Source: Bacteroidales bacterium | Lineage (GTDB): Bacteria; Bacteroidota; Bacteroidia; Bacteroidales; UBA932 | Assembly: GCA_022647615.1 (NCBI GenBank) | Contig: JALCKZ010000001.1 | Coordinates: forward strand, 110,178 to 174,177 | Length of the DNA stretch: 64,000 nucleotides | Direction of reading: 5' to 3' | Part shown: piece after piece, positions 7,898 to 60,895 of the stretch | How the letters are laid out: each line of letters begins with the position of its first letter | Position numbering within the stretch: position 1 is the stretch's first letter | Program-made: the position numbers and the translations under genes | The notes under the pieces: generated by a model | Told to the model about the DNA's origin: nothing | Database searches by the model: none | Seen by the model: the letters and a program-made list of their open reading frames with translations, nothing else

Positions 7898-9793
7898 CTA
7901 CCAGTTCTTCTCCTTCTGCCTGGACTTTGCTGCAGCCGCACGCGCCTTCTGCACTTTCTGCTGCGTCTGATTCTCCTTATCCTGAATGGCTTGCAGCATT
8001 TGCTGAGCATTCTGCTGGCTCATCTTTGGCTGCTGGCCGCCACCCTGAGGCTGCTGCTGCGGATTCTGCTTGTTCTGATTATTCTGGTTGTTTTGATTAT
8101 TCTGATTTTGGTTCTGGTTATTCTTGTTTTGATTGTTATTGTTCTGATTTTGATTTTGGTTATTGTTTCCCTGATTATTCTTGTTCTGATTATTTTGGTT
8201 CTGATTCTGATTCTGATTTTGGTTCTGATTGTTATTATTCTTGTCTTTATTGTCCTTATTGTTCTTGTTATTATCCTTGTTCTGATTCTGCTGATTCTGA
8301 GCCATCTTCTTGGCATAAGCATAGTTTGCCTTGGCCATCATATCGGAAGGATTCCTGACAAGAGATTGCTTGAACATTTCAGCCGCCTTGTCATACTGCT
8401 TCTGAGCCATATAGTTATTGCCGGCATTAAAGAAAAACTTTGACAAGTTATTTGGCTTGCCCATGTCTTTCTTAGTGTATTTTTTCTTCACGATAGTTTT
8501 GCCGCTGCCGTTCCAATTCATTTTGAACGGAATCTTGCTCACGGTATCTGCCGTAGCCTCAAACATCTTAGTGGCGTTATCAGCATCTTTCAATCTGTAC
8601 AGGGTATTTGCAAGATTAGCACGCCCCACAACAGACATGGAATCTCTTAGCAAACCTTTGCGGTATTCAACCTCCGCCTGTTTGAATTTGCTCTTTCCAA
8701 AATATCTGTTTCCGTTGCCGACCTGTTTTTTATCTCTCTGCGCAAAACCCTGAGTGCCAATCATTAAAAATAGCACCGCAAACATAAAAATTCTCTTTCC
8801 CAACTTTCTGTTTCCTATTAAAAATTCCAGCAGCAAAAACGCAAGAGCTATTGCAAGGAAGTACATAAACTGCTCATCATACTCCTCAAATGCAAGGGCT
8901 TTGTAACTCTGCTTGCTTAACTCTCTAATTTTATCAAGTATCACATCCAGACCAAACTCGGCATCTCCCGCCTTAACATACGCTCCATCACCCGCCTTTG
9001 CAATCTCCTGCAAACCAGTCTCGTCCAGCTTTGTGACAACAATATTTCCCTGCTTGTCCTTCATAAGTCCGCCGCCGGCCATCGGAATCGGCTGACCCTG
9101 AGGTGTTCCAACACCTATGCAATAAACTCTGATTCCCGCCTCGCGAGCAGACTGTGCGGCAGCAACTGCATCATCCTCATGGTTTTCACCGTCGGTGATC
9201 ACAATAATTGCCTTATTATCTTTGCCTGCCATTCCCTCTTCTGAAAAACTCTTTGCGCAAGTCTCAATGGCATCTCCAATTGCAGTTCCCTGAATTGGGA
9301 CAGATGACGTATTTATGCTGTTCAAAAAAGCGGTTGCGGAGACATAATCTGCTGTAATTGGGAGTTGTACAAAAGATTGTCCTGCAAATACAACCAGACC
9401 TATGCGGTCATTGTGAAGCCTATTTACAAGATGGGCAATATCCATCTTTGCCCTCTCCAAACGGTTTGGAGAATAATCACGAGCAAGCATGGAATTTGAG
9501 ACATCCAGCGCTATCATAATCTCTGAACCTTTATCATCGCTCTCCTTAAGCTTTGCTCCAATCTGAGGCCTTGCAAGACCCAGCATTAAAAACAGCCACG
9601 CCAAAGAGAAGCAGGTAAGTTTAACCCACCCTATAGACTTTGACCTCTCCGGCATCAATTTGTCTACCAGCTCCGGAGTTCCGAACTTTGCAATTCTCTT
9701 GTTTCTTCCTCTTCTGTAAAGTGCATAAAATAAGTAGAATAGAGGAATAACAAATATTAAAAACAAATATAACGGTTGTGCAAAATGTAACAT
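7898..9793 (-). CDS. batB: BatB-BatC fusion: VWA-domain membrane protein joined to a TPR protein with an N/Q-rich tail
   Basis: The N-terminal half is a TM + VWA domain (MIDAS-like DVSNSM, ITDGENH). After a TM helix, an internal signal-peptide-like MFAVLFLMIGTQGFAQ (codon near 8785) is followed by TPR-like repeats and a tail of about 90 aa of N/Q/K. No stop codon separates the two halves. Confidence 0.8.
   Translation of the reverse strand: MLHFAQPLYLFLIFVIPLFYLFYALYRRGRNKRIAKFGTPELVDKLMPERSKSIGWVKLTCFSLAWLFLMLGLARPQIGAKLKESDDKGSEIMIALDVSNSMLARDYSPNRLERAKMDIAHLVNRLHNDRIGLVVFAGQSFVQLPITADYVSATAFLNSINTSSVPIQGTAIGDAIETCAKSFSEEGMAGKDNKAIIVITDGENHEDDAVAAAQSAREAGIRVYCIGVGTPQGQPIPMAGGGLMKDKQGNIVVTKLDETGLQEIAKAGDGAYVKAGDAEFGLDVILDKIRELSKQSYKALAFEEYDEQFMYFLAIALAFLLLEFLIGNRKLGKRIFMFAVLFLMIGTQGFAQRDKKQVGNGNRYFGKSKFKQAEVEYRKGLLRDSMSVVGRANLANTLYRLKDADNATKMFEATADTVSKIPFKMNWNGSGKTIVKKKYTKKDMGKPNNLSKFFFNAGNNYMAQKQYDKAAEMFKQSLVRNPSDMMAKANYAYAKKMAQNQQNQNKDNNKNNKDNKDKNNNNQNQNQNQNQNQNNQNKNNQGNNNQNQNQNNNNQNKNNQNQNQNNQNNQNNQNKQNPQQQPQGGGQQPKMSQQNAQQMLQAIQDKENQTQQKVQKARAAAAKSRQKEKNW
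8002..8300 (-). repeat. Low-complexity AAC/CAG (N/Q) codon repeat tract inside batB/C
   Basis: The protein reads NQNQNQNQNQNNQNKNNQGNNNQNQNQNNNNQNKNNQNQNQNNQNNQNNQNKQ. The nucleotide sequence shows gattctgatt/ggttctgatt type microrepeats. Confidence 0.9.
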
Positions 9794-14075: not shown

Positions 14076-14918
14076 ATGAAATATTTTATCCGTCTTTCAT
14101 ATAACGGCGCCCCCTTCAGCGGCTGGCAAATTCAAAAAAACGCAAACAGCGTTCAGGAGGAACTTCAAAAGGCTTTCTCCACTCTCCTAAAAGAGAAGAT
14201 TGAAATTACCGGTGCGGGAAGAACAGACAGCGGAGTCAACGCCGTCAACTATATAGCCCATACGGAAATTTCATCTATTGGTAAAAACCCGGCTGAGTTT
14301 CTTTACAAAATAAATGCCATTCTGCCCAAAGAAATAGTAGTAAAGAACATTTTTAAAATGCCCGCCTCCGCTCATGCAAGATTTGATGCGGTGAGCAGGA
14401 CCTACAAATACTTCTTAACGCTTGAAAAAGAACCGTTTAACTCAGCTTTTACATACTTTTACAGACCCGGGCAGCTGGATTTTGAAGCTATGAATAAGGC
14501 GGCAAAGTACTTCCTTGGAGAGCAAGATTTTACCAGCCTGGAAAAACTGCACAGCGGAGCGCAAAATGCCATCTGCAACGTAACCGCCGCCTGCTGGGAA
14601 CGTCAAGCCGGCAGCACAGCGGCAGGAACCCGCGGCGCAGCGGCAGGAACCGGTGGCGCAGCAGCAGAAACCGGCGGCGCAGCTTTTATAATACCCTGTG
14701 CAACAGATATATATGTATTCACTGTTACATCAAACAGATTCCTGCGCAATATGGTCAGAGCAATGGTAGGTTCACTTTTGGAAGTTGGCAGCGGCAAACG
14801 CAAACCGGAGTGGATTGCAGAGATGCTTGCCCGCAAAGACAGATGCGCCGCCGGTTACTCCGTCCCCGGCAATGCCCTATTCCTTACAGAGATACGCTAT
14901 CCATATCCGATAGAATAA
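14076..14918 (+). CDS. truA: tRNA pseudouridine(38-40) synthase TruA
   Basis: From the internal Met: MKYFIRLSYNGAPFSGWQIQ...GAGRTDSGVNA (catalytic Asp)...FLRNMVR. The ORF-track start at 13758 overlaps moxR and is rejected. Confidence 0.85.
   Translation: MKYFIRLSYNGAPFSGWQIQKNANSVQEELQKAFSTLLKEKIEITGAGRTDSGVNAVNYIAHTEISSIGKNPAEFLYKINAILPKEIVVKNIFKMPASAHARFDAVSRTYKYFLTLEKEPFNSAFTYFYRPGQLDFEAMNKAAKYFLGEQDFTSLEKLHSGAQNAICNVTAACWERQAGSTAAGTRGAAAGTGGAAAETGGAAFIIPCATDIYVFTVTSNRFLRNMVRAMVGSLLEVGSGKRKPEWIAEMLARKDRCAAGYSVPGNALFLTEIRYPYPIE
14613..14683 (+). repeat. In-frame GC-rich 21-nt tandem repeat (about 3.4 units) inside truA
   Basis: Units are agcacagcggcaggaacccgc / ggcgcagcggcaggaaccggt / ggcgcagcagcagaaaccggc / ggcgcagc. 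They encode STAAGTRGAAAGTGGAAAETGGAA. Confidence 0.85.
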
Positions 14919-14946
14919 TCCTACGATTCTCAATCCCGGGTAATGA

Positions 14947-15077
14947 TAACAAGGCATAAAAAATAACGGGCTCTTTTCGCCCGTTATTTTTTTGCCCGCG
15001 CGCCACGTGGCGCGCTGCCTCCTCGTGGCGGCAGCCACGTAAACCACTAATTGCCAGCATGCTTTGTATGCTGGCAA
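14947..15077 (-). repeat. GC-rich multi-hairpin repeat, copy C (reverse orientation)
   Basis: Collinear with the reverse complement of 31841-31962. Order is terminator hairpin, gcgcgcca/tggcgcgc, cgtggc-ggca-gccacg, taaaccactaa, then ttgccagcat-GCTTTGT-atgctggcaa. Confidence 0.85.
14963..14993 (+). terminator. Rho-independent terminator of truA (part of repeat copy C)
   Basis: Stem ataacgggc/gcccgttat with a 7-nt loop, followed by a T7 run. Confidence 0.7.
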
Positions 15078-15120
15078 CTCGCAGACTGCACAGCAGGCTG
15101 CGTGAAGATGCTACCGCTTA

Positions 15121-15253
15121 AGAACGCACAGAAAGGCAAAAAGTTAATCTATTGATAATGTGTTAATTGCAAGGTCTACGATTTTTGAGGGGATAAAAAC
15201 GCCGTAACTTACTGATAGTCAGATAGGGTAATTTTTGCCTTTTTGTGCGTTCT
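15121..15253. repeat. 22-bp inverted repeat pair (21/22 match) flanking an 89-nt spacer
   Basis: agaacgcacagaaaggcaaaaa (15121-15142) versus tttttgcctttttgtgcgttct (15232-15253). The second arm runs into TTCTGGAGGGGGTGGC. Confidence 0.8.
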
Positions 15254-15358
15254 GGAGGGGGTGGCAAAGTGCTTCTCCACGCATCCTATAGAGGTGGTAT
15301 GCACAGTACATTTCTACGCGTCCAGGTGTGAAACGAAAAACCGCTTCGCAGAGCTTAT

Positions 15359-15476
15359 ATTTGGGTTTTTATTAAAATACAGATATACAACAAGATACAT
15401 GGATTGAAAAAATCAAAACCTGATTTTCACAAACGTGCAATGCGCTTATTATCTGCAACTTGGTAAAAACCCAAAT
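15359..15476. repeat. 13-bp perfect inverted repeat pair flanking a 92-nt spacer
   Basis: atttgggttttta (15359-15371) versus taaaaacccaaat (15464-15476). TTCTGGAGGGGGGGGGGTGGC follows 8 nt later, paralleling the module at 15121-15268. Confidence 0.8.
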
Positions 15477-15491
15477 CCACGTACTTCTGGA

Positions 15492-15501
15492 GGGGGGGGG
15501 G
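15492..15501 (+). repeat. Homopolymeric G10 tract
   Basis: Ten consecutive G in a low-GC intergenic context. The paralogous motif at 15257-15261 has G5. Confidence 0.9.
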
Positions 15502-15546
15502 TGGCGGGAATGAAACAGCAGCTCGGAAAAAAGGAATTGTGTTAAG

Positions 15547-15672
15547 CACGCTCCGCATGCAGTTACCAGCGCACAAAGCGCGCTGGTAATGTGTGGTTTA
15601 CGCGGCTCCCGCCGCGAGGAGGCACGCGCTCCGCGCGGGCAAAAATCTGCTGAGCAGAAAATTTTGCCTTGC
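15547..15672 (+). repeat. GC-rich multi-hairpin repeat, copy B (forward orientation)
   Basis: cacgctccgcatgcag, ttaccagcgc-ACAAAGC-gcgctggtaa, tgtgtggttta, cgcggc-tccc-gccgcg, aggaggca, cgcgc-tcc-gcgcg, ggcaaaaa, tctgc-tga-gcaga, aaattttgccttg. Confidence 0.85.
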
Positions 15673-15790
15673 GGAATTTTTCCCATTGAAAAAAGCCATG
15701 GGAAATTTTTGCGTTGAGGATTTTCAATTGAAAGAAAAGCCGTGGGAAATTTTTGCCTTGTGAATTTTCCATTGTGAATTTGTACCTTTG
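15659..15790 (+). repeat. Imperfect tandem repeat of about 44 nt (about 3 units) upstream of exbB
   Basis: Units start at 15659, 15703 and 15747, each beginning (g)aaattttt-gc(c/g)ttg. This is the tail motif of the multi-hairpin repeat, triplicated. Confidence 0.75.
15783..15790 (+). promoter_or_regulatory. Candidate -7 box (TAccTTTG) for exbB
   Basis: Exact TAnnTTTG, 67 nt upstream of the exbB ATG. Confidence 0.35.
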
Positions 15791-15857
15791 ATTTTTGCAT
15801 AATATTTGCAAGGGTTGCGTGGGTGTGGAAAACAGAAATTTATAAACGTAAAACAAT

Positions 15858-16580
15858 ATGACATTATTAACATTCCTATTACAGGCAGACACAGCTGCGG
15901 CAATTGATCAGGCCGCTCAAACTGTCGCAGTTAAACAGCAAGCTTCTATGTCCCTGATTGACATGACAATAAAGGGAGGATGGCTGATGATTCCTCTGTT
16001 TATTCTCTCCATTTTGACCATCTATATCTTTGGTGTAAAATGGTATACAATCAGAAAGGCATCAAAGGTTAATCCTAATTTCATGAATGATATTAAGGAT
16101 TTGATTCACGACGGGAAAATTAAGTCTGCGCTTGCACTGTGCAAGAGAGAAGATACGCCTGTTTCACGTCTAATTGAGAAAGGCATAGAGAGGATGGGAC
16201 GTCCGCTTACAGATATACAGGCAGCCGTGGAAAACCTTGGCAATATAGAAGTTGCAAGGTTGGAGAAAGGTCTTCCGGGACTCGCTTCAATTGCGGGAGG
16301 CGCACCTATGATAGGATTTTTGGGTACCGTACTTGGTATGGTTCAGGCATTCTTTAATATGTCACAAGCCGGCAACAATATAGATATCACGCTGTTATCA
16401 GGAGGTATTTACACAGCCATGGTTACAACCGTTGCAGGTTTGATAGTTGGTATTCTTGCTTTCTTTGGGTATAACTACCTGACAGCAAAGGTTTCTGATT
16501 TGGTATTCATGCTGCAGAGCAACACAATTGAGTTCATGGATTTGCTTCATGAGCCTGGTGATAGCACCGTTGCAAAATAG
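15858..16580 (+). CDS. exbB: MotA/TolQ/ExbB proton-channel protein
   Basis: 240 aa with three TM helices and the typical ...LASIAGGAPMIGFLGTVLGM... motif, followed by ExbD and TonB-like genes. Confidence 0.85.
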   Translation: MTLLTFLLQADTAAAIDQAAQTVAVKQQASMSLIDMTIKGGWLMIPLFILSILTIYIFGVKWYTIRKASKVNPNFMNDIKDLIHDGKIKSALALCKREDTPVSRLIEKGIERMGRPLTDIQAAVENLGNIEVARLEKGLPGLASIAGGAPMIGFLGTVLGMVQAFFNMSQAGNNIDITLLSGGIYTAMVTTVAGLIVGILAFFGYNYLTAKVSDLVFMLQSNTIEFMDLLHEPGDSTVAK

Positions 16581-19367: not shown

Positions 19368-20960
19368 TTACTTGTAAGAGCCCATCTTGAGCATCCCTAT
19401 CTCCTGCTGAGTAAGGAATCTCCACTGTCCGCGTCTTAGTCCCTTCTTTGTAAGTCCCGCAAAATAAACACGGTCCAGCTTCTTAACTTTATATCCAAGA
19501 CTCTCAAAAATTCTCCTGACAATTCTGTTTCTGCCGGTATGGATTTCTATTCCAAGCTGGCTCTCATCTTCATCTATATATGAAAGCGCATCAGCATTAA
19601 TAGGTCCGTCTTCCAGTTCAATACCGTTTACAATCTTCTCAAAATCATCCTTTTTCAGATTCTTATCCAAAAAGACCTGATAGATTTTTTTCTTCTCATA
19701 AGAAGGATGTGTCAGCTGTTCTGTGAGTTCTCCGTCATTTGTCAGCAGCAGCACGCCCGTTGTCTCTCTATCTAGTCTCCCGACAGGATATACTCTCTCA
19801 GCACATTTGCCCTCCACCAAATCCATTACGGTCTTTTCCGCATGAGGGTCAGAAGTTGTTGTAACATAATCTTTTGGCTTATTCATTAAGATGTAAACTT
19901 TCTGTTCGCCCTTAATAACCTCACCATTGAACTTAACAACATCATTCTGAAAAACTTTTGTTCCAAGCTCAGTAATTACCTGATCATTAATAGAAACCAC
20001 TCCGGCTGTGATAAAATCATCAGCCTCTCTTCTGGAACAAATTCCTGAATTTGCAATAAACTTATTTAAACGAGTTCCCTCTTCTCCAGCAGCCTTTGGC
20101 TGTCTTGGTTTAGGGGTATATTCCTGAACGTAAGAGCGCTGCTTATCCAAAGTCTCATCCCCGTTCTCTTGGAATCTGTCTATTCTGCTCTCATTCATCT
20201 CCTCCCTGCGGGCAGCTCTCTCTGCATCAAAATCCCTGCGCGGCTTCCTGTCTCTATCTCCAAAACTTCTTCTTGGTCTGTCGCCTCCGTCTCGTGAACC
20301 GCCAAAGCTTCTGCGAGGTCTGTCGCCTCCATCACGTGAACCGCCAAAGCTTCTTCTTGGACGGTCTCCAAATGTTCTTGGTTTATCTCCGTAACTCCTT
20401 CTCTCTCTGTGCTCTCCTCCCTCCTTGTCATCATCAAATTTTCTTCTGAAAGGTCTGTCTCCAAAACTCCTCGGCTTATCCCCAAAACTTCTTCTTGGAC
20501 GGTCGCCTCCATCACGTGAGCCGCCAAAACTTCTTCTTGGACGGTCGCCAAATGTTCTTGGTTTATCTCCGTAACTCTTTCTTTCTCTGTGCTCTCCCCC
20601 CTCCTTGTCATCATCAAATTTCCTTCTGAAAGGTCTGTCTCCAAAACTCCTCGGCTTATCTCCAAAGCTCCTTCTTGGTCTATCTCCTCCGTCACGTGAA
20701 CTCCCGTAACTCCTTCTTGGTCTGTCACCTCCGTCACGCGAACCGCCAAAACTTCTTCTTGGACGGTCACCTCCATCGCGCGTTCCTCTGAAACTTCTGC
20801 GCGGTTTCTCATCTGAGCCTTCACCTTTATCATCTCTGTCGTGATGAAAACTCCTTCTCTGCGGACGTCCTGAGCCTTCCCCGGCTGAGAACTTTCTGTG
20901 TCCGTAGCTGCGTCCTGTACTCTTTGAGTCAGAGCGCCTTGGTCTAAATTCCTTTTCCAT
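19368..20960 (-). CDS. rluB: RluB/RsuA-family pseudouridine synthase with a long RG/RD-rich repetitive N-terminal extension
   Basis: The C-terminal 270 aa hold an S4 domain (RLNKFIANSGICSRREAD) and a catalytic PVGRLD motif. The N-terminal 255 aa or so are repeats of GGSRDGGDRPRRSFG. Confidence 0.85.
   Translation of the reverse strand: MEKEFRPRRSDSKSTGRSYGHRKFSAGEGSGRPQRRSFHHDRDDKGEGSDEKPRRSFRGTRDGGDRPRRSFGGSRDGGDRPRRSYGSSRDGGDRPRRSFGDKPRSFGDRPFRRKFDDDKEGGEHRERKSYGDKPRTFGDRPRRSFGGSRDGGDRPRRSFGDKPRSFGDRPFRRKFDDDKEGGEHRERRSYGDKPRTFGDRPRRSFGGSRDGGDRPRRSFGGSRDGGDRPRRSFGDRDRKPRRDFDAERAARREEMNESRIDRFQENGDETLDKQRSYVQEYTPKPRQPKAAGEEGTRLNKFIANSGICSRREADDFITAGVVSINDQVITELGTKVFQNDVVKFNGEVIKGEQKVYILMNKPKDYVTTTSDPHAEKTVMDLVEGKCAERVYPVGRLDRETTGVLLLTNDGELTEQLTHPSYEKKKIYQVFLDKNLKKDDFEKIVNGIELEDGPINADALSYIDEDESQLGIEIHTGRNRIVRRIFESLGYKVKKLDRVYFAGLTKKGLRRGQWRFLTQQEIGMLKMGSYK
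20320..20690 (-). repeat. Near-identical 180-nt tandem duplication inside the rluB N-terminal region
   Basis: Lines 20341-20460 and 20521-20640 are almost identical at a 180-nt offset. Each unit encodes about 60 aa (FGDKPRSFGDRPFRRKFDDDKEGGEHRER.SYGDKPRTFGDRPRRSFGGSRDGGDRPRRS). Confidence 0.9.
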
Positions 20961-26489: not shown

Positions 26490-27017
26490 ATGATACTTTC
26501 TTTATGCGGTTTTATGTCATGCGGCAAAAGCGGCATGGGGCGTTACCTAGCCAATGAGTTAAAAACGCAAGTCATTGACTTGGACAGTTATATAGAGACG
26601 CAGGAAGGATGTACCGTTTCTGAATATTTTGCAAAAAATGGAGAAGAAAAATTCCGGGCAACGGAATTAAATGCGCTAAAAAAGATTATCGCAGATTACC
26701 GGGATAAAAATCTAATTCTATCTCTCGGCGGCGGAACGCCAATGAATCCTGAGTGCAAAAAGCTCATCAAAGAGAAAACTTTTTGCATCTATCTCACCTG
26801 TACAATTAAAGAGCTGGCTTTCAGATTAAAAGACACGGCAAGTCAGCGCCCCGTCTTTGCCGCCAAAGGAGAAGCAGATACAGAATCGTGGGTAAAAACC
26901 ATGCTTGCCAAAAGAGAACCATCTTATCTACAATGCTCTAAACTCCAGGTAGATACCACCATCTGGGATAAAAAATCCATAGCAGAAGAAATCCTAAAAA
27001 GATTACCTAACAGGTAA
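26490..27017 (+). CDS. aroK: Shikimate kinase
   Basis: 175 aa with P-loop GFMSCGKS, D.D...IE, and FR..E...L and LGGG motifs. Confidence 0.8.
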   Translation: MILSLCGFMSCGKSGMGRYLANELKTQVIDLDSYIETQEGCTVSEYFAKNGEEKFRATELNALKKIIADYRDKNLILSLGGGTPMNPECKKLIKEKTFCIYLTCTIKELAFRLKDTASQRPVFAAKGEADTESWVKTMLAKREPSYLQCSKLQVDTTIWDKKSIAEEILKRLPNR

Positions 27018-27039
27018 TATCAATGTCCCCAAGCGGAGC

Positions 27040-27206
27040 GGCAAAGTCGCGAACGCCGCGCCAAAGGCGCGTGCCTCCTTCACCGCGGCAGCGGTGTTAA
27101 CCACAAGGCAATGCGCTGCTTTGTAGCGCATTGCTGCAGCCCGCGCAGCGGGCTGTACTTGCTGCTTTGTAGCGCATTGCTTCAGCAACCTGTAAAACAG
27201 GTTGCA
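27040..27206 (-). repeat. GC-rich multi-hairpin repeat, copy D (reverse orientation, diverged and partly duplicated)
   Basis: cgcgcc-aaa-ggcgcg, tgcctcc, caccgc-ggca-gcggtg, ttaaccacaa, gcaatgcgct-GCTTTGT-agcgcattgc. It then has cagcccgc-gca-gcgggctg, a second GCTTTGT-agcgcattgc half, and gcaacctg-taaaa-caggttgc. Confidence 0.8.
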
Positions 27207-27269
27207 GTAAAAAATCCCTTATTGAGGGAGATTTTTTGCAAAAAAAGCACTCATTGAGGGATTTTTATT

Positions 27270-27277
27270 TATATTTG
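27270..27277 (+). promoter_or_regulatory. Candidate -7 box (TAtaTTTG) for the COG1373 ATPase
   Basis: Exact TAnnTTTG, 17 nt upstream of the ATG at 27295. Confidence 0.4.
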
Positions 27278-27294
27278 CAACAAATCTTAAAGCC

Positions 27295-28470
27295 ATGATA
27301 GAGGATTCATTATATGCATACATGTCGGAAAAGATTAAAGCAACACCGACAAAATTCAACCGCTACAAGTACAGTCAAATCAATTGGGGTGACAGATTGA
27401 TTGGCATTATTGGTCCAAGAGGAATTGGAAAGACCACAATGATGCTACAATATCTCATAGCACATCAATACACTGGGAATCACTTATATGTAGCTGCTGA
27501 CAATATTTATTTTGCAAATCATACTATTCTAGAATTGGCCGATGATTTTGTTAAGGAAGGCGGAACTAATTTATACATAGATGAAATTCATAAATATTCT
27601 GGATGGTCAAGAGAATTAAAACAAGTTTATGATGTTCACCCTGATTTGCATATAGTTTTTACAGGTTCCTCTATATTAGACATATACAAAGGCAAAGCAG
27701 ATTTAAGCAGACGTGTGGTAATGTATGAAATGCAGGGAATGTCCTTCAGAGAGTATCTGGCATTATATCAAAATGTTGATGTCAGAGTTTACACTCTAGA
27801 GGAGATTCTAGCACATAAAGTTAAAATTAAAGGCATCCAACACCCGCTGCCTCTTTTCAGAAAATATCTTAAACAGGGCTACTATCCTTTTGCAATGGAG
27901 GGAAGTTTTGCAATACGAATGGAACAGGTCATTACTCAAACTATTGAAAATGACATACCTATGTACACAGACATGAAAGCAGTTACTGCAAAAAAATTGA
28001 AAAGGATGCTTTCTATTATTTCCACTCTTGCTCCTTTTAAACCAAACGCAGACAACATGGCAAAAGAAATCGGGGTTAGTAAAAATAATATCTCTGACTA
28101 TTTGATTATGCTGGAAAAAACAGGCATGATTGGACAACTTAGAGACAACACCGGAGGAATGCGTGGTTTGGGCAAAGTTGAAAAAGTTTATGTAGATAAT
28201 CCTAGTCTAATGTATGTTTTATCAGGAGATAAGCCTGAAATTGGCAATATCAGAGAGACCTTTTTTTATAATCAAATGCGAGTAATGAATGATGTAACCT
28301 CATCAAAGGCGTCTGATTTTAAAGTAGATAAATATACCTTTGAAATTGGAGGTCACAAAAAAGGACATAAGCAGATAGAAAATATCAGCAATGGTTTTGT
28401 GGTCAAGGATGACATTGAGGTCGGACACGGAGACGTTATCCCGCTGTGGCAATTTGGGTTTAATTACTAA
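27295..28470 (+). CDS. COG1373-type AAA+ ATPase with a degenerate C-terminal nuclease-like motif
   Basis: 391 aa with Walker A GPRGIGKTT, Walker B LYIDEIH and a wHTH-like middle region. The C-terminal SDFKVD-KYTFEIGGHKKG aligns with EVDLIV..VEIKSG of the paralogue at 110-1291. Confidence 0.75.
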   Translation: MIEDSLYAYMSEKIKATPTKFNRYKYSQINWGDRLIGIIGPRGIGKTTMMLQYLIAHQYTGNHLYVAADNIYFANHTILELADDFVKEGGTNLYIDEIHKYSGWSRELKQVYDVHPDLHIVFTGSSILDIYKGKADLSRRVVMYEMQGMSFREYLALYQNVDVRVYTLEEILAHKVKIKGIQHPLPLFRKYLKQGYYPFAMEGSFAIRMEQVITQTIENDIPMYTDMKAVTAKKLKRMLSIISTLAPFKPNADNMAKEIGVSKNNISDYLIMLEKTGMIGQLRDNTGGMRGLGKVEKVYVDNPSLMYVLSGDKPEIGNIRETFFYNQMRVMNDVTSSKASDFKVDKYTFEIGGHKKGHKQIENISNGFVVKDDIEVGHGDVIPLWQFGFNY

Positions 28471-28480
28471 CGTTATTTGT

Positions 28481-28488
28481 TAACTTTG
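28481..28488 (+). promoter_or_regulatory. Candidate -7 box (TAacTTTG) for mcrBC
   Basis: Exact TAnnTTTG in the 82-nt spacer, 64 nt upstream of the mcrB ATG. Confidence 0.35.
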
Positions 28489-28552
28489 TTATTGAATGAA
28501 ATAAAGTACGCTCTCTAAAATTAAAGGAATCAGGTAAAAAAGACAGCTAGCA

Positions 28553-30550
28553 ATGGATATTAAAAATAAAATCGAAGACGAATTAAGGAATAATAAACCA
28601 TTGTATGAAAACATCTCCTCCTCTAAAGAATTCTATTTCGCAAAAGCTAGAGATGCATGGAATCAATGGAAAAGCTTACAGATTGATGGTAAGTTGATTA
28701 CAGAACTTATTTCTTTAGATTACAAGGATTTTAGTAAAAGAGAAGATATTTCAAATATTAGGGATACCTTATTTAAGTTTGTTGCCCATTGTGACACTAA
28801 AGCAAAGGATAAAAATGATATAAACGAATATCAAGACCACCGAGCTATCGCGCAAGTTGGCGTTTATCAAAATAACTGGATTAGCCAATTATTAAAGTAC
28901 AAACTGGACCCTAAAAGCGTAACGGACACGATGACTAACCTATTCAACTACATTGAAGATCCAAGGAACCATCTGCCTATTTTAAGCGAGCAGCATAAAT
29001 CACTTATCGCAAAATTCTTCTTTGAAAAAGGATATGACAGAACGACTTTTGCAACTGAGGCTAAAGCATATTTTGAAAAGTTTTGCCAGTGCGAAAATGA
29101 CGAAAACAACACATACTTTTATTCAAGGCTAATCTATGGATTAAAAACGCTATGGGATAGCAGAGATATTCAAGGACTGATTTGCCGTGATTCTAATGAC
29201 TCCTGGAAAGACTCCTATATAAACGATATGAAGGCTAATAAGCACGCTTGTCTATGGTGGAATACAAGCCCCGTTGATAGAGCAGATGTCATTAAAAAAT
29301 TATCCTCAATTGTAGAAGCTGGAGGCACCTTTGTTGTATACTTTGTAAGTCAAAATTATGCGACATATAAGGCCACAGTAATAGATTTCGCTGTTGAAAA
29401 AAATTATACTAAAAAGGCCAACAACTGGAGGCAATATGAACCTGAACCTGTAGAATTTAAAGATAATTTTAAAGACTATAGTGATGGTGATAAACATGCG
29501 GCAATTGTTTTTCTTGCAAGCAAATTTGAGAAACTAACTTCACCAATTGACATCGAAAATTTTAAGACTTATAATGGTGCTAAATACCCGCAAGTTATAC
29601 ATATAGTAGCCTTTACAAAAATACTTTCAAACCAAGACAAAGAAATGGAAACAAATATAGATTCATGCAAGTACCTTTTGGAGACTAATCGCAATTTAAT
29701 ATTGCAAGGTGCTCCCGGTACAGGAAAAACATACAATTCTGCATCAATAGCAGTAGCTCTCATTGACGACAATTTTGTGAATTTTAATGACCATAGCGAA
29801 GTAATGAAAAAATATGAAGACCTGAGAAAAAACGAACAAATTGCTTTCATAACATTCCACCAATCAATGGATTATGAAGATTTTGTAGAAGGTCTAAGGC
29901 CTATTGTAAAAGATAAAAACATAGCCTATCAATTGGAAGATGGAATCTTTAAAAAAATATGTGCTGTAGCAAAAGGGAATCCGGATAAAAAGTATGTCCT
30001 TATTATCGATGAAATAAATCGTGGTAATGTTTCGAAAATCTTTGGCGAATTAATAACATTGATTGAAAAAGATAAGAGGCTCCTCAGCACACATCCACTA
30101 ACTATTCCACTAACATACTCAAAAGTTGATTTCGGAGTGCCTAACAATGTGTACATTATAGGGACGATGAATACTACAGACAGAAGCACTGGCACATTGG
30201 ATTATGCGCTACGTAGACGTTTTGTATTCAAAACATTGCCTTCTCAGAAAAATATTGTGGAGAATCAAGGTTCAAATATTGCTCAAGAAGCTGCAACACT
30301 ATTTGATGACGTATTTAATTTCATTAAGAGCTACAAGGCGGATGATATGAATATAGAGGATTTAATGGTAGGACATAGTTATTTTCTTGCTGAAAGTGAA
30401 AAAGAACTTAAGATGAAAATAAGCTATGGAGTGATCCCTTTAATCAAAGAATACATTAAGGATGGTATACTTCGTCAGCCCAAGACAACAGATAAAGACA
30501 CGAAAGACTATTTCGATAATTGGACAAATCTACTCCCATTAAGTCAATAG
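28553..30550 (+). CDS. mcrB: McrB-family AAA+ GTPase (Type IV restriction) with an unassigned N-terminal region of about 370 aa
   Basis: Walker A GAPGTGKTY (aa 386), FHQSMDYEDFVEG, Walker B LIIDEINRGNVSKIFGEL, the McrB signature GTMNTTDRS and ALRRRF. No AAA motif occurs in the first 370 aa or so. Confidence 0.85.
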   Translation: MDIKNKIEDELRNNKPLYENISSSKEFYFAKARDAWNQWKSLQIDGKLITELISLDYKDFSKREDISNIRDTLFKFVAHCDTKAKDKNDINEYQDHRAIAQVGVYQNNWISQLLKYKLDPKSVTDTMTNLFNYIEDPRNHLPILSEQHKSLIAKFFFEKGYDRTTFATEAKAYFEKFCQCENDENNTYFYSRLIYGLKTLWDSRDIQGLICRDSNDSWKDSYINDMKANKHACLWWNTSPVDRADVIKKLSSIVEAGGTFVVYFVSQNYATYKATVIDFAVEKNYTKKANNWRQYEPEPVEFKDNFKDYSDGDKHAAIVFLASKFEKLTSPIDIENFKTYNGAKYPQVIHIVAFTKILSNQDKEMETNIDSCKYLLETNRNLILQGAPGTGKTYNSASIAVALIDDNFVNFNDHSEVMKKYEDLRKNEQIAFITFHQSMDYEDFVEGLRPIVKDKNIAYQLEDGIFKKICAVAKGNPDKKYVLIIDEINRGNVSKIFGELITLIEKDKRLLSTHPLTIPLTYSKVDFGVPNNVYIIGTMNTTDRSTGTLDYALRRRFVFKTLPSQKNIVENQGSNIAQEAATLFDDVFNFIKSYKADDMNIEDLMVGHSYFLAESEKELKMKISYGVIPLIKEYIKDGILRQPKTTDKDTKDYFDNWTNLLPLSQ

Positions 30551-30554
30551 TCTG

Positions 30555-31829
30555 ATGAGAACAACTAAGGTCATTCATGAACATGATTGTTTTCCAGATA
30601 AAGTATCATATCTTAAATATGATTCGAGGCTAGGGAATGGTTTTCCCCTATTTCCTCCTGGTACCTCGGATTTCAATCAGCGTTATTTTATTCAATGGGA
30701 AGGGCTTGATAATAAGCCCGGTTATAGAGCATCTTATATGATAGGTGCTCAGTGGATAAATACTGAGCATGATCAAATTCCCGTAGCAGTTGTACCAAAA
30801 ATTGAACACATAGATTTTTTAAAAATGTTTATGTCCTGTTTCTACAGTAATTTAGCTGAAGACTCATTTTCTAAGATTTACCATATTGATACCTCAAAGA
30901 AGGAAATTGAATGTCAAGAACTTGACAGTATTTTAAGCCCTTTAATTGTCCTTCATTTTCTTGCCGTAACTAAATCTCTTATAGCAAAAGGCTTAAAAAA
31001 AGATTATGTGAATAGGGATGGGAACATGCATAAAGTTAAAGGCAGGCTGGATATTCGTAAGAACGAAAAAACTAATGTGTTGACAAGAAGACTTGACCGA
31101 TTTTACTGTAATTATCAAGAATATTCAGAGGATATCCCGGAAAATAGAATCATTAAAAAAGCTCTTATAATATCGCAAGTGATTCTACAAAAAATACAAC
31201 CACAACAATCAGAAGGGGCTATCAATATCTTGCGCAAATGCCTAGCTGTAATGAGTGGAGTTGGTAACACGATAGAGCAACATGAGGTCTCAATGATTAA
31301 ACATCATAAACTTTTCAAAGAGTATGAAGAGAGTATAAAGTTGGCAAAACTCATTTTAAAAAGATATGATTTCAGCATTACCAAAGAAGGTAAAAACCAT
31401 GATTTTGTGCCAGTATTTTGGATTGATATGCCATTGCTATATGAGCACTATGTTTATGGATTATTGTCTGCATCGTATCCTGACGATATAATCTATCAAG
31501 CTGAAGGACAGACCGGATATCCTGATTTCTTGTGTAAGTCACATAAGTTGATTTTGGATACCAAGTACATTCCTGATAGTGATATACATTTGGATACTTA
31601 TGTAATTCGGCAGTTGTCAGGATATGCTCGCGACAATGCAATACTCAATCAACTAAACGCAGACTATAAAGAAGTGGTGCCATGCGTTATCATATATCCC
31701 AAGGAGTCAGTTGATAATGAGGTAGTAAATGATTTTAACAAACCGTTAAATAAATTATGGACACAATACGAAGGTTTAGTGGAGTTTTACACAATTTGTG
31801 TTAATCTGCCTAATATAGTAAAAAGATAG
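30555..31829 (+). CDS. mcrC: McrC-like nuclease subunit
   Basis: 424 aa starting 4 nt after the mcrB stop. C-terminal PD-(D/E)xK-like GYPDFLC...LILDTKY, with size and order typical of McrC. Confidence 0.8.
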   Translation: MRTTKVIHEHDCFPDKVSYLKYDSRLGNGFPLFPPGTSDFNQRYFIQWEGLDNKPGYRASYMIGAQWINTEHDQIPVAVVPKIEHIDFLKMFMSCFYSNLAEDSFSKIYHIDTSKKEIECQELDSILSPLIVLHFLAVTKSLIAKGLKKDYVNRDGNMHKVKGRLDIRKNEKTNVLTRRLDRFYCNYQEYSEDIPENRIIKKALIISQVILQKIQPQQSEGAINILRKCLAVMSGVGNTIEQHEVSMIKHHKLFKEYEESIKLAKLILKRYDFSITKEGKNHDFVPVFWIDMPLLYEHYVYGLLSASYPDDIIYQAEGQTGYPDFLCKSHKLILDTKYIPDSDIHLDTYVIRQLSGYARDNAILNQLNADYKEVVPCVIIYPKESVDNEVVNDFNKPLNKLWTQYEGLVEFYTICVNLPNIVKR

Positions 31830-31840
31830 TACTATACGAG

Positions 31841-31962
31841 TTGCCAGCGCACAAAGCGCACTGGCAATTAGTGGTTTACGCGGCTCCGCCGCGAAGCTGC
31901 ACGCGCTCCGCGCGGGCAAAAAAAAACAGGCAAAAATGCCTGTTATTTTTTATGCCTTGTTA
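31841..31962 (+). repeat. GC-rich multi-hairpin repeat, copy A (forward orientation, most compact copy)
   Basis: ttgccagcgc-ACAAAGC-gcactggcaa, ttagtggttta, cgcggc-tcc-gccgcg, aagctgca, cgcgc-tcc-gcgcg, ggcaaaaaaaaa, caggc-aaaaat-gcctg, ttattttttatgccttgtta. Confidence 0.9.
31925..31951. terminator. Bidirectional rho-independent terminator between mcrC and recJ (part of repeat copy A)
   Basis: Stem aacaggc/gcctgtt, preceded by A9 and followed by aTTTTTT. The flanking genes are convergent. Confidence 0.7.
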
Positions 31963-31992
31963 ATCTCCTTATATTACTTCTTGAAGATTTTC

Positions 31993-33750
31993 CTAGAAAC
32001 TCAAATCGTTGCGTTCACGTATATCCTTGATTCTCAGCTGAACATTGGCAATGCTGCTGCGGTAGAAATTCTCTGCAATTGAGTAGCAAATATCCACCGG
32101 ATTGCCCGCCTCCAGATGGTCAAAGTAATCCGACATGTTAAATGCTATTGCTGATAAATGACGATAAGGTTCATCCTCTTGAATCAGCTCCAGTTTCAAA
32201 TGTCCATTTTGACTCCCCACCTTTCTTCCATTACCGTCATCATAAACATTCTCCGTAATAAAAACAGGAGAAAGATTACCCGGACCAAACGGCTGAAATT
32301 GATTCAAAATTCTAAAAAACTTTGGAGTAATTTGATGGAACTCCAAATAAGAATCGGCTTTTATGATAGGAGTAAGTATCTCCTTTGTAATCTTCTTAGT
32401 AACAATCTCTTCAAAGCGTCTCTTAAACTCAGGAAGATTCTCCTCCTTAAGAGTAAGTCCGGCAGCATAAACATGGCCTCCAAAATTTTCCAGCAAATCT
32501 GAACAAGATTCAATTGCCTCATACAAATCAAATCCCGGAATACTTCTGGCAGAACCTGTAATAAAGCCATTTGAAGATTTTGTAAGAACAATAGTAGGTC
32601 TGTAAAATGCTTCTACCAAGCGGCTTGCGACAATACCTACAACTCCCTTGTGCCATCCCTCATTGTAAACCACAGTAGAATTGAGTTTCTCAAAATCGGG
32701 CTCCTTCTTCACAATCTCAATCGCCTCTTTAGTAATCTCCCTGTCTATGTTCTTGCGCTCATTATTATGGTCATTAATTTCCTTTCCAAATTTTGTTGCA
32801 TCAGCCTCATTCTGAGATGTAAGCAAATCAACTGCAGTCCTTCCGCTCTCCATTCTCCCCGCCGCATTAATTCTTGGACCAATCTTAAACACAATATCAT
32901 CTATCGTGATTTTATGCTTTTCCAAACCGGAAAGTTTTATCATTGCAAGAAGTCCCTTGCGCGGAGCCTCATTCAATCTCTTCAATCCAAAATAAGCGAG
33001 CACTCTGTTCTCTCCCGTAACTGACACTAAATCAGCTGCTATGCTTACAGCCACCAAATCCAGCAAAGTCTCAATTTTCTCAAAAGGAATCTGATATTTT
33101 TGCGCGTAACCCTGGACTAATTTAAAGCCCACTCCGCATCCCGACAGGTCATCAAAAGGATAATCACAGTCTGACCGCTTAGGGTCAAGGACAGCAACGG
33201 CGGGAGGAAGAATATCTCCCTGCAAGTGATGGTCGCAAATAATAAAATCTATCCCCTTCTCTTTTGCATACTTCACAGAATCAGCCTCTTTGATACCGCA
33301 GTCAAGCGCTATCACCAAGTTAAACTTACGCTCCGCAGCCCAGTCAACTCCATGAAAAGAGATACCATATCCCTCATCATATCTGTCGGGAATATAATAA
33401 TCTATCTCATCTTTTTCAGTGAGTGTTTTCAGAAAAGAATAAACCAAAGAAACTGCAGAAGTTCCGTCAACATCATAATCTCCATAGATGAGGATGCGTT
33501 CTTTTTTCTCAATTGCAGTATGAATACGCTCAACAGCAACATCCATGTCCTTCATTAAGAAAGGATTATGAAGCATTTTCAAATCGGGGCGGAAGAAGTC
33601 CCTGGCCTCCGCATAATCTTTTATTCCCCTCTGCACCAAAAGGTTTGCAAGCACCTCATCAATTCCAAGATCTTGCATAAGTTGCCTTGTGTAAAGAGGG
33701 TTGCCGGGCTCTCTTAGCACCCACTTCTTCTCTATATTTCTTACATCCAT
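31993..33750 (-). CDS. recJ: Single-stranded-DNA-specific exonuclease RecJ
   Basis: 585 aa with DHH motifs (YGDYDVDGTS, DCG, CDHH) and a DHHA1 GGH motif (FGGHVYAAG). Confidence 0.9.
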   Translation of the reverse strand: MDVRNIEKKWVLREPGNPLYTRQLMQDLGIDEVLANLLVQRGIKDYAEARDFFRPDLKMLHNPFLMKDMDVAVERIHTAIEKKERILIYGDYDVDGTSAVSLVYSFLKTLTEKDEIDYYIPDRYDEGYGISFHGVDWAAERKFNLVIALDCGIKEADSVKYAKEKGIDFIICDHHLQGDILPPAVAVLDPKRSDCDYPFDDLSGCGVGFKLVQGYAQKYQIPFEKIETLLDLVAVSIAADLVSVTGENRVLAYFGLKRLNEAPRKGLLAMIKLSGLEKHKITIDDIVFKIGPRINAAGRMESGRTAVDLLTSQNEADATKFGKEINDHNNERKNIDREITKEAIEIVKKEPDFEKLNSTVVYNEGWHKGVVGIVASRLVEAFYRPTIVLTKSSNGFITGSARSIPGFDLYEAIESCSDLLENFGGHVYAAGLTLKEENLPEFKRRFEEIVTKKITKEILTPIIKADSYLEFHQITPKFFRILNQFQPFGPGNLSPVFITENVYDDGNGRKVGSQNGHLKLELIQEDEPYRHLSAIAFNMSDYFDHLEAGNPVDICYSIAENFYRSSIANVQLRIKDIRERNDLSF

Positions 33751-36928: not shown

Positions 36929-37786
36929 ATGTCAAAGTTCGCCCTAATAGGAAATCCAATAAAACACTCTCTAAGCCCAGCCCTATTCAAAATAGCCTAC
37001 AGCGGAAATACAGATGAATATGAACTAATTGAATCCCAGAGTGTTGAGGAGGCAATGCAAAAAGTTCACGATGGCGAATACAGTGGCATCAATGTCACTG
37101 CTCCTTTCAAAGAATCCGTAATGCAGTATGTCACCCGTCCGGACTCCGTCACCACTCGCCTGCACGCCGCCAATACCCTGCTATTCAAGGGGGCAGAAGT
37201 TTTTTCCTACAATACCGATTATTTGGCCGTGAGGGAAATCTTGAGCATACGCTGCGCGCAGAGCAGTGCGGCACAAAGCGCCGCACTGCCAAGTGATTTA
37301 CGCGGCTTCCGCCGCGAGGATGCACGCGTGCTCCGCACGCGGCCTTTGGCAAATAGATTATATCCCTCTGCTGAAAGAAAAGCAATGGTAATTGGCGTAG
37401 GCGGTGCTGGGAAAGCAGCCGCACTGGCACTAAAAGACGCTGGCTACAAAACCATTATAGCAAACAGAACCATAGATAAAGCAAAAGAATTTGCTGCAGA
37501 AATAGGAGCAGAATCCGCCGGATTAAACGAGGTGGCAGATATTGTTAAACGCGTTGCAGTTATAGTATATGCGCTGCCGCTGAAAATAGAAGAGTTAAAA
37601 GAGAGTGACCTGTCGGGAGTACTATTGATTGAAGCAAATTATAAAAACCCCTCTTTCTCCGCAGCCCCAAACTACGTGGGCGGATTGGAATGGCTGGTGA
37701 ACCAGGCAATCCCGGGATTCAAGCTTTTTACAGGCCGGGAACCGTCAGCAGAGAGGATGAGGCTTTTTGCAGAATCAATAATTTAA
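36929..37786 (+). CDS. aroE: Shikimate dehydrogenase carrying an in-frame repeat-derived insertion of about 30 aa
   Basis: GNPIKHSLSP, NVT.PFK, NTDY and GVGGAGKAAA motifs. The NTDY-to-GxGG spacer is 54 aa, versus about 20-25 aa expected for the family. Confidence 0.8.
   Translation: MSKFALIGNPIKHSLSPALFKIAYSGNTDEYELIESQSVEEAMQKVHDGEYSGINVTAPFKESVMQYVTRPDSVTTRLHAANTLLFKGAEVFSYNTDYLAVREILSIRCAQSSAAQSAALPSDLRGFRREDARVLRTRPLANRLYPSAERKAMVIGVGGAGKAAALALKDAGYKTIIANRTIDKAKEFAAEIGAESAGLNEVADIVKRVAVIVYALPLKIEELKESDLSGVLLIEANYKNPSFSAAPNYVGGLEWLVNQAIPGFKLFTGREPSAERMRLFAESII
37248..37343 (+). repeat. GC-rich multi-hairpin repeat, copy E, inside the aroE ORF (in frame)
   Basis: tacgctgcgcgcagag, cagtgcggc-ACAAAGC-gccgcactg, ccaagtgattta, cgcggc-ttcc-gccgcg, aggatgca, cgcgtgc-tcc-gcacgcg, gcctttggcaaa. 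It lacks the terminator module. Confidence 0.85.
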
Positions 37787-41245: not shown

Positions 41246-41260
41246 ACCGCACAAAGCGGT
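41246..41260. repeat. Solo mini-hairpin with the ACAAA(G) loop of the multi-hairpin repeat family
   Basis: accgc-ACAAA-gcggt followed by cttctttttt. The core CGCACAAAGCGG matches hairpin 1 of the repeat family. Confidence 0.5.
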
Positions 41261-46362: not shown

Positions 46363-46436
46363 GCCGATGTAGCTCAGTTGGCCAGAGCAGCTGATTTGTA
46401 ATCAGCTGGTCGGGGGTTCGAATCCCTCCATCGGCT
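46363..46436 (+). tRNA. tRNA-Thr (anticodon TGT)
   Basis: Cloverleaf folded by hand. Acceptor GCCGATG/CATCGGC, anticodon stem GCTGA/TCAGC with loop TTTGTAA, T-loop TTCGAAT. No encoded CCA. Confidence 0.9.
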
Positions 46437-46454
46437 CTAATTTTTTGTGTTAAC

Positions 46455-46537
46455 GGAGAGGTACCAAAGTGGCCAACTGGGGCAGACTGTAAATCTGCTG
46501 GCTTATGCCTTCGGAGGTCCGAATCCTTCCCTCTCCA
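46455..46537 (+). tRNA. tRNA-Tyr (anticodon GTA), long variable arm
   Basis: Acceptor GGAGAGG/CCTCTCC, anticodon loop CTGTAAA, long variable arm, T-loop TCCGAAT region. Confidence 0.9.
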
Positions 46538-46547
46538 CTTTTTTACC

Positions 46548-46620
46548 GCGGAAGTAGCTCAGTTGGTAGAGCATCAGCCTTCCAAGCTGAGGGTCGCGAG
46601 TTCGAACCCCGTCTTCCGCT
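46548..46620 (+). tRNA. tRNA-Gly (anticodon TCC)
   Basis: Acceptor GCGGAAG/CTTCCGC, anticodon loop CTTCCAA, T-loop TTCGAAC. Confidence 0.9.
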
Positions 46621-46628
46621 CTAAGAAG

Positions 46629-46700
<72 letters not shown>

Positions 46701-48082: not shown

Positions 48083-48153
48083 AGGGACATAGTTCAAGGG
48101 TAGAATCGCGGTCTCCAAAACCGCTGATGGGCGTTCGAATCGCTCTGTCCCTG
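48083..48153 (+). tRNA. tRNA-Trp (anticodon CCA)
   Basis: Acceptor AGGGACA/TGTCCCT, anticodon stem GCGGT/ACCGC with loop CTCCAAA, T-loop TTCGAAT. In the typical position before secE. Confidence 0.9.
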
Positions 48154-60890: not shown

Positions 60891-60895
60891 AAAAA

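Follow-up and report, generated by a model that had tools for sequence, protein, structure and literature searches.

A stretch of 64,000 nt from contig JALCKZ010000001.1 of an uncultured Bacteroidales bacterium (assembly GCA_022647615.1), called the window in the following, carries five copies (A to E) of a GC-rich multi-hairpin element at unrelated housekeeping loci. This family is rather likely to represent a lineage-restricted, non-coding palindromic mosaic repeat that acts at the DNA level and belongs to a Bacteroidales lineage including contigs labelled Candidatus Egerieousia. With a similar degree of confidence, we consider its behaviour comparable to that of the selfish repetitive extragenic palindromic (REP) sequences and bacterial interspersed mosaic elements (BIME), the Rickettsia palindromic elements (RPEs) and the mitochondrial GC clusters. 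We place it at the level of DNA and not among the RNAs of the host because the copies occur in mixed orientation, their stems are almost purely Watson-Crick paired, orthologous copies decay, loops are flipped and one copy is translated. The family is apparently undescribed; it represents a familiar type among the selfish palindromic DNAs of bacteria, and its copy in aroE is in-frame in the manner of an RPE.

Identification of the repeat family

The unit of approximately 100-180 nt is a chain of GC-rich perfect hairpins linked by short conserved unpaired motifs. Hairpin 1 has a 10-bp stem with the loop ACAAAGC and is followed, after 3-4 nt, by GTGGTTTA(C). This conserved single-stranded motif had been assigned to the position behind hairpin 2, but it lies between hairpins 1 and 2. 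Hairpin 2 (6 bp, loop TCC or TNCC) leads via the spacer AGGAGGCA or a variant of it into hairpin 3 (5-8 bp). The 3' end exists in two types. In the A-type (A, B, C and the copy L127 from a metagenome), it consists of GGGCAAAAA with an A-tract, a hairpin, a T-run and ATGCCTTGTTA. The E-type, found in copy E and in a copy behind a major facilitator superfamily (MFS) transporter gene in relatives, has a fourth hairpin and then GCCGCTCCGCTTGGG / CTCCGCTTGGG.

A covariance model, R1, which spans hairpin 1 through the linker and hairpin 2 to the spacer, was built from 7 sequences and run on the whole window with filters off. It returned exactly copies A (80.2 bits), B (86.3), C (85.1), D (83.7) and E (78), i.e., 78-86 bits at E-values of 1e-18 to 1e-20. 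These are the five copies listed in the original prediction, and direct reading confirmed their positions, stems and loops as described there. The next-best match, with 17 bits (E 0.018), is merely copy C read in reverse.

Within the 7 sequences, 99.1% of the stem cells are paired and 13 of the 16 pairs have changed on both sides. None of 500 shuffles matched the observed pairing, and controls with a slid register pair in 16-51%. When relatives are included (14 distinct sequences), 98.6% of the stem cells are paired and the same 13 pairs are changed on both sides, in good agreement with the module order and the compensatory stem changes that had been proposed. Wobble pairs make up 5 of 213 stem cells in this larger set; the remainder is almost exclusively Watson-Crick. 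For hairpins 3 and 4, direct reading shows that the differences between copies are perfectly complementary. The copies, as paralogs at unrelated housekeeping loci, have a common module order and 80-90% identity, and the folding of A, B and C is well above shuffled controls (z -4.3 to -7.5). Their G+C content of 52-68%, compared to 41.5% for the window, bears out the GC-richness noted before.

The part of the 2.2-Mb genome that was searched amounts to approximately 82 kb (the window plus 18 kb of flanks), and relatives were read as pieces of approximately 20 kb. The same copies recur in many independent assemblies. A metagenome scan with a stem-free 24-base pattern gave two loci, the ortholog of E and the new A-type copy L127; as the collection is evidently poor in samples of this species, two loci are no measure of rarity. 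A scan of a genome collection with the pattern ACAAAGC-N12-15-GTGGTTTAC, which is too loose, gave at least 120 matches, and none of those listed had a hairpin 1 stem and a GC-rich tail.

Decay and turnover between relatives

Syntenic blocks of contigs labelled Candidatus Egerieousia sp. are approximately 83-87% identical to the window at the DNA level. Sequences of relatives are denoted by L numbers here. The content of elements differs between them. The truA-exbB spacer has 939 bp in the window and comprises copy C, 481 nt and copy B; the two copies provide the halves of a 64-nt inverted repeat that encloses these 481 nt. In L136-138, the spacer has 715-745 bp and one decayed copy C, and in L139-143 it measures 156 bp and 47 bp, with no copy. 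Behind the MFS gene, L122, L124 and L128 carry an E-type copy where the window has 76 nt of unrelated AT-rich sequence; L128 and the window are 99% identical on both sides of this site. Copy A is absent from L122 and present as a remnant beside recJ in L124. A split dxs gene in L122 was considered as a further insertion of the element and rejected, as it is a simple frameshift without a GC-rich insert.

Between the gene of an AAA_14 ATPase and recJ, the window carries a restriction pair, McrB (AAA_5) and McrC (28553-31829, 34-35% G+C). It is missing in L122 and L124, and in L131, which is of the same species, it is replaced by a different gene for a 242-aa protein without a Pfam match (L131 4134-4862). 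The McrBC locus is a variable defence-island slot bordered by copy A. Homology between L131 and the window restarts exactly at GTGGTTTAC of copy A, i.e., the junction falls between hairpin 1 and the GTGGTTTAC motif.

Between aligned orthologous copies, all stem substitutions found are uncompensated, and hairpins 2 and 3 are broken in the orthologous copies of L137 and L124. The rule that the loop is always ACAAAGC holds inside the window and fails in the two most decayed copies of relatives, the ortholog of C in L136/L137 and the remnant beside recJ in L124. In both, the 7-nt loop is reverse-complemented; the arms and the remaining element keep their orientation. All intact copies share one loop orientation. 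The flip is an inversion between the hairpin arms and thus a DNA-level event. Elements also grow: in the lineage of the window, copy E gained 46 nt inside hairpin 1. This addition consists of a new hairpin at 27137-27155 and, at approximately 27160-27181, a duplication of 21 nt that corresponds to half of hairpin 1.

Copy D within aroE

The open reading frame (ORF) 36929-37786 encodes shikimate dehydrogenase (AroE), and copy D (37245..37395, plus strand) lies in-frame within it, adding a loop of approximately 33 residues to a protein that comprises 285 aa with the insert. An identical AroE protein sequence is found on 15 contigs from several samples. The orthologs of relatives reveal four states of this loop. 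The window, L128 and L129 carry element D; L122 and L123 have another GC-rich insert, which contains an internal direct repeat of 47 nt; L124 and L125 contain an element-like insert in reverse orientation (20 bits with R1); and L121 has no insert and a protein of 252 aa. The insert of L122 (L122 10330-10464) has two identical 47-nt direct repeats that are 88 nt apart. It was checked as a candidate for another dispersed family, and no second copy was found in any sequence fetched.

In an alignment with structures from the PDB, the AroE insert maps between residues 111 and 117 of the Aquifex protein 2hk7, which is the inter-domain linker. The AlphaFold2 model has pLDDT values (predicted local distance difference test) below 50 at residues 116-148 and above 80 for the rest. 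Judged by this model, the peptide of copy D probably forms a flexible loop in the inter-domain linker of the enzyme.

Copy D was thought to end at 37343; it runs on to approximately 37395 with a degenerate, B-like terminator module that has no T-tract. Its tail keeps TCTGCTGA-AAGAAAA, compared to TCTGCTGAGCAGAAAA in B, and 6 of 1000 shuffles reach the score of this match. The tail would thus correspond to a terminator module minus stem and T-tract, which is what one would expect within an essential gene.

TruA (gene at approximately 14076-14918) is a further housekeeping enzyme that carries GC-rich sequence in-frame. Here, 21-nt tandem repeats at 14582-14685 lie within a loop of approximately 30-40 residues. 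This loop is hypervariable between close relatives, and the more distant ortholog of L142 lacks it. The sequence is unrelated to the hairpin family.

Genomic setting and the terminator module

The neighbours of the copies are core genes: the bat operon, truA, exbBD, era, the gene of a type II topoisomerase subunit A (PF00521), aroK and recJ, with aroE, ssb, purA, dxs, tuf and rpoBC as further core genes around them. Copy A starts 10 nt past the mcrC stop codon, and 31 nt separate its end from the stop of recJ, a convergent gene. The distance from the truA stop to copy C is 29 nt and that from the aroK stop to copy E is 7 nt; both copies are reversed, and E has further terminator-like hairpins downstream. 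The MFS copy of relatives directly follows the MFS stop codon in forward orientation. Thus A, C, E and the MFS copy sit between stop codon and terminator, in both orientations, and D is the sole intragenic exception. With respect to the surrounding transcripts, A, D and the MFS copy are sense, and E and the aroE insert of L124 are antisense.

In copy A, hairpin 4 is scored as an intrinsic terminator on either strand, and in copy C it has a perfect 14-bp stem between an A-run and a T-run. Copy B has a weak hairpin 4, D a degenerate one and E none. The A-type hairpin 4 has the features by which intrinsic terminators are recognised, a GC-rich stem-loop with a T-tract and, for bidirectional ones, an A-tract upstream. 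Going by these sequence features, the A-type module probably terminates transcription, and does so bidirectionally. Since close relatives do without the element at the same sites, termination looks like a side effect or a co-option and not like the reason for the existence of the element.

A probable DNA-level repeat and its possible mode of spread

The comparison of relatives shows that new copies arise at new loci and survive mostly between stop codon and terminator. Their subsequent decay involves point mutations, flipped loops, duplications inside the element and replacement. We infer that the covariation among paralogs is a property of the copying process, for which two options may be considered. 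Either only intact hairpins with correctly oriented single-stranded motifs would be copyable, presumably via a structure-specific protein, or hairpin-templated replication or repair (template switching) would preserve the symmetry of the arms. A protein partner is suggested by the invariant loop and by the invariant motif, whose distance from a freely varying stem is constant. No candidate enzyme for the dispersal of the family was found among the annotated genes of the sequences fetched.

Several observations speak against such a repeat or are at least not expected from it. Among relatives, there is no pair of a filled and an empty site with exact boundaries; the flanks differ at every polymorphic site, and therefore transposition itself is not demonstrated. 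The whole aroK-AAA_14 spacer, which holds copy E, is approximately 91% identical, compared to approximately 83% for the neighbouring genes, and this conservation could reflect functional constraint rather than recent spread. Likewise, a 156-nt block comprising D is 96-97% identical between the window and L129, where the flanking aroE has 79-82% (binomial p ~9e-9). This could point to a recent acquisition or exchange, or to a (functional) constraint at the DNA level. A six-frame peptide search of low sensitivity found no second in-frame insertion, with AroE only among the matches listed. No further copy occurs in the 8-10 kb past either end of the window (18 kb in total).

The usual marks of mobile repeats are not seen either. 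Direct reading found no GTAG, CTAC, CGTC or GACG at any hairpin foot of copies A-E. There are no terminal inverted repeats (TIRs), as A, C and L127 show no complementarity between their 5' ends (..AGTTGCCAG) and 3' ends (..ATGCCTTGTTA), and no direct repeat (target-site duplication) was found at the borders of A, B, C and L127, which are not base-exact. No conserved flank (tetranucleotide) was seen upstream of the seven loci read. Finally, no transposase was found among the annotated genes of the window, in the 18-kb flanks or beside L127. Within the window, this check comprised Pfam on 110-22316 and the annotations of orthologs for two regions, approximately 22.8-47.9 kb and approximately 51.3-63.5 kb. 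Outside of it lie six ORFs in the region of 48.5-51.2 kb and a single ORF at 63.5-63.9 kb. The annotated genes of the window and the 18-kb flanks hold no integrase or reverse transcriptase. The idea that ATGCCTTGTTA or TTTGCCTTG is a frequent native target motif was not supported.

Alternative explanations

A more specific version of the DNA-level repeat would take the hairpins as recognition or cleavage sites of a structure-specific DNA enzyme (an HUH/Y1 transposase, a relaxase-like nuclease or a recombinase) that binds the loop of hairpin 1 and cuts beside GTGGTTTAC. It provides a mechanism for the spread of the repeat and adds the exchange of neighbouring cassettes, e.g., of defence islands and of the loop in aroE. 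Neither the loop nor GTGGTTTAC varies, and GTGGTTTAC keeps a constant distance of 3-4 nt to the base of a freely varying stem. A fixed motif at a constant distance from a variable stem is the geometry of HUH nick sites. The single loop orientation in all intact copies, with the two flips restricted to decayed ones, would fit such an enzyme, and so would the four occupants of the aroE site, one of them reversed, and the near-identity of the D block in diverged lineages. The lack of TIRs and target duplications is as in elements of the IS200/IS605 type. A nick site would also be compatible with the L131 breakpoint, as homology restarts there precisely at the GTGGTTTAC motif of copy A, but this is a single breakpoint, and one case is not evidence. 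The other junctions, the duplication in copy E and the replacement of the MFS copy, fall away from the GTGGTTTAC position. Moreover, no HUH, Y1 or recombinase gene was found in the sequences fetched, no conserved flanking target was seen, and the five copies show no strand bias. Altogether, we regard this version as unlikely at present. Its most explicit form is slightly more doubtful still: hairpin 1 and GTGGTTTAC would be the nick site of an HUH/Y1-like enzyme that disperses cassettes, targets one site in aroE again and again, with a hypervariable translated protein loop as the outcome, and bounds defence cassettes such as McrBC and the gene in its place in L131.

It is about as improbable that the family is a functional structured RNA, be it a stabiliser in the 3' untranslated region, a terminator cassette or a paralogous small RNA, whose loop binds a protein or another RNA. 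The strong folding of A, B and C, the covarying stems and the position of most copies between stop codon and terminator, where A-type copies bring their own terminator, are what one would look for in such a case, and the well-conserved spacer with copy E agrees with it. An RNA should, however, not occur in both orientations relative to the host transcript, and wobble pairs would not be nearly absent from its stems. Further points against it are the uncompensated decay of orthologs, with hairpins 2 and 3 broken in L137 and L124, the flipped loops, and the copy within a coding sequence. No Bacteroidetes-type promoter is evident upstream on direct reading, no Rfam family was matched, and the same loci of close relatives are devoid of the element, with nothing in its place. 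The original prediction had taken the covariation as a sign of selection on structure, either of RNA or of single-stranded DNA. For RNA, orientation, scarcity of wobble pairs, uncompensated decay, loop flips and the copy in aroE argue against this; the single-stranded DNA alternative stays viable.

Chance or an assembly artefact, for which nothing but the weak mini-hairpin at 41246 could be cited, is practically out of the question given the E-values of 1e-18 to 1e-20, the shuffles of which none equals the observed pairing, and the same copies in many independent assemblies.

Comparison with known families

That the elements are not a described RNA family was confirmed by a search of the window against Rfam release 15. 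At gathering thresholds, it gave only five tRNAs, and permissive scans of 14800-15900 and 26950-32050 gave chance matches only (14-25 bits compared to thresholds of 43-242). There was no match to the family in plasmid, phage or IMG/VR collections, and the literature searched holds no multi-hairpin GC-rich repeat family for Bacteroidales. An integron attC site was rejected, as paired R''/R' cores (RYYYAAC ... GTTRRRY) are missing, the copies are scattered over housekeeping loci and the annotated genes include no integrase. Readings as CRISPR, retron, group II intron domain or tRNA-like structure were rejected for lack of defining motifs or neighbouring genes.

[quoted passage not shown] Its relation to REP/BIME is nevertheless close in several respects. 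These are known from Enterobacteria and Pseudomonas and include the REPINs mobilised by RAYT transposases (PMC3116915, PMC3337134, PMC3733652); CGTC-tagged REPs have been reported from the phylum Bacteroidetes (PMC3733652). As in REP/BIME, the elements are GC-rich extragenic palindromes that mostly lie between stop codon and terminator or between convergent genes, in either orientation. They share with them the mosaic combinations of hairpins with conserved linkers, a copy content that varies between strains and the lack of TIRs and target duplications. They differ from REP/REPIN in having 3-5 different hairpins plus conserved loop and linker motifs over approximately 100-180 nt instead of one palindrome or inverted pair of 20-40 nt. 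In addition, they have no GTAG or CGTC tag and no RAYT among the annotated genes, and they belong to the phylum Bacteroidota.

RPEs (reviewed in PMC10969869; see also PMC3733652) resemble copy D, which is likewise a palindromic repeat of approximately 100-150 bp in-frame in the gene of a housekeeping enzyme, with its peptide at a position compatible with the fold. RPEs are found in dozens of genes and one in-frame case was found here; RPEs end in CGTC (PMC3733652), and direct reading shows no such terminus in our elements. The host is a free-living gut Bacteroidales and not an obligate intracellular alpha-proteobacterium. No sequence similarity to RPEs is apparent, with no direct comparison to RPE sequences made.

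The GC clusters of yeast mitochondria (PMC4478555) are similar as GC-rich hairpin modules in an AT-richer genome with rapid turnover, merging and shuffling of modules and exchange between lineages, and no element-encoded transposase is known for them. In contrast to our family, they are organellar, they are unrelated in sequence, and putative target-site duplications have been noted for them in the literature cited in PMC4478555. Small dispersed non-coding repeats such as SPRITE of Streptococcus pneumoniae and MITE-like repeats, including the MITE of P. gingivalis (PMC10969869, PMC4596501), are comparable in general appearance. Like terminator-type repeats such as SPRITE, the A-type 3' module is a canonical bidirectional intrinsic terminator; unlike in SPRITE-type repeats, the terminator is one module only and is lost or degenerate in B, D and E. 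MITEs are defined by TIRs and target duplications, neither of which is seen here. IS200/IS605-derived (PATE-like) elements are also similar in their arrangement: in our family, hairpin 1 marks the 5' end, the 3' end is formed by hairpins 3 and 4, and neither TIRs nor a duplication were seen.

The family exemplifies covariation among paralogs without RNA selection at the level of the host, which calls for caution in motif-discovery pipelines. It further exemplifies a repeat absorbed into an essential enzyme, with an RPE-like loop of AroE in four allelic states among close relatives, and an inversion of hairpin loops together with an accretion of modules caught between strains. If a dedicated enzyme does exist, this would be a new hairpin-guided mobile system in Bacteroidota, a major phylum of the gut. 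The practical consequences are modest and concern markers for strain typing. The elements likely cause mis-assembly and mis-annotation in metagenome-assembled genomes, e.g., an elongated AroE and spurious ORFs.

Modules of the individual copies

The focal copy A (31839..31962, plus strand) is located between the stops of mcrC (31829) and the convergent recJ (31993). Hairpin 1 covers 31841-31867 with the loop at 31851-31857, and GTGGTTTA at 31871-31878 is directly followed by hairpin 2 (31879-31893). The spacer AAGCTGCA, hairpin 3 (31902-31914), the terminator hairpin 4 (31915-31957, core 31925-31944) and the end motif ATGCCTTGTTA complete the copy. Copy B (15545..15672, plus strand), approximately 190 nt upstream of exbB, has an extra 5' hairpin at 15547-15561. 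Its hairpin 1 (15563-15589), GTGGTTTA (15593-15600), hairpin 2 (15601-15616), spacer AGGAGGCA, hairpin 3 (15625-15637) and weak hairpin 4 (15638-15669) follow in this order.

Copy C (14947..15079, minus strand) consists of hairpin 1 at 15051-15077, TAAACCAC at 15040-15047, hairpin 2 at 15024-15039, hairpin 3 at 14998-15015 and the terminator hairpin 4 at 14953-14997, which faces the 3' end of truA. In copy D, a 5' palindrome (37250-37262) precedes hairpin 1 (37263-37289), GTGATTTA (37293-37300), hairpin 2 (37301-37316), the spacer AGGATGCA and hairpin 3 (37325-37341). The E-type copy E (27024..27206, minus strand) lies between aroK and the AAA_14 ATPase gene and is antisense to both. It extends further than the 27040 given before, to approximately 27024. 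Hairpin 1 is found at 27108-27134, TTAACCAC at 27097-27104, hairpin 2 at 27081-27096 and hairpin 3 at approximately 27057-27071, and the 3' end reads ...GCCGCTCCGCTTGGGG.

The original prediction had also included a mini-hairpin, ACCGC-ACAAA-GCGGT (41246..41260, plus strand), downstream of a bidirectional terminator. It reaches 7.5 bits with R1 (E 5.2), and its ortholog in L122 has the loop ATGA. As it has only the apex GCACAAAGCG in common with hairpin 1, its membership in the family is not demonstrated. A remnant of a full copy was considered and rejected, as L122 and L128 have a full E-type copy upstream of the shared terminator plus the mini-hairpin.

Other repeats in the window

Upstream of exbB, the segment that separates copies C and B contains two hairpin-like units. 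In the first (15114-15260), inverted repeats of 29 nt (..AGAACGCACAGAAAGGCAAAAA / TTTTTGCCTTTTTGTGCGTTCT..) flank an 89-nt core (15143-15231); in the second (15359-15476), the inverted repeats have 27 nt and enclose 64 nt. Both units are followed by CTGGAGGGGG..TGGC. The 89-nt core fits the ortholog of L137 better when reverse-complemented (score 11.5 vs -1.5), with divergence being high. This suggests a putative invertible segment and candidate phase-variable promoter of exbBD. Just upstream of exbB, two direct 40-nt repeats (AAAAGCC(A/G)TGGGAAATTTTTGC.TTG...) are located at 15691-15774. The related TTTTGCCTTG is part of the tail of copy B (15662-15671), and the motif TTTTTGCCTTG is found again in the element-free spacer of L139. 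The repeats may serve the exbBD operon as an operator or promoter element.

Four further observations concern other regions. The S4/pseudouridine synthase gene at 19368-20960 has 180-nt tandem repeats with a 42-nt sub-period (20255-20813) in the N-terminal part of its RluB-like protein, and the length of the orthologs varies between strains from 369 to 575 aa. At 60755-60914, a 17-nt tandem repeat (AGCAAGTCACAGCAATA and variants, approximately 7-9 copies) extends from the end of a thioredoxin-family gene into the spacer before a convergent gene. Periodic repeats of 12-15 nt inside a VWA/TPR BatB-like gene (8047-8304) suggest a low-complexity coding repeat. Four tRNA genes are clustered at 46363-46700 and one more lies near tuf at 48083-48153, which is an ordinary arrangement.

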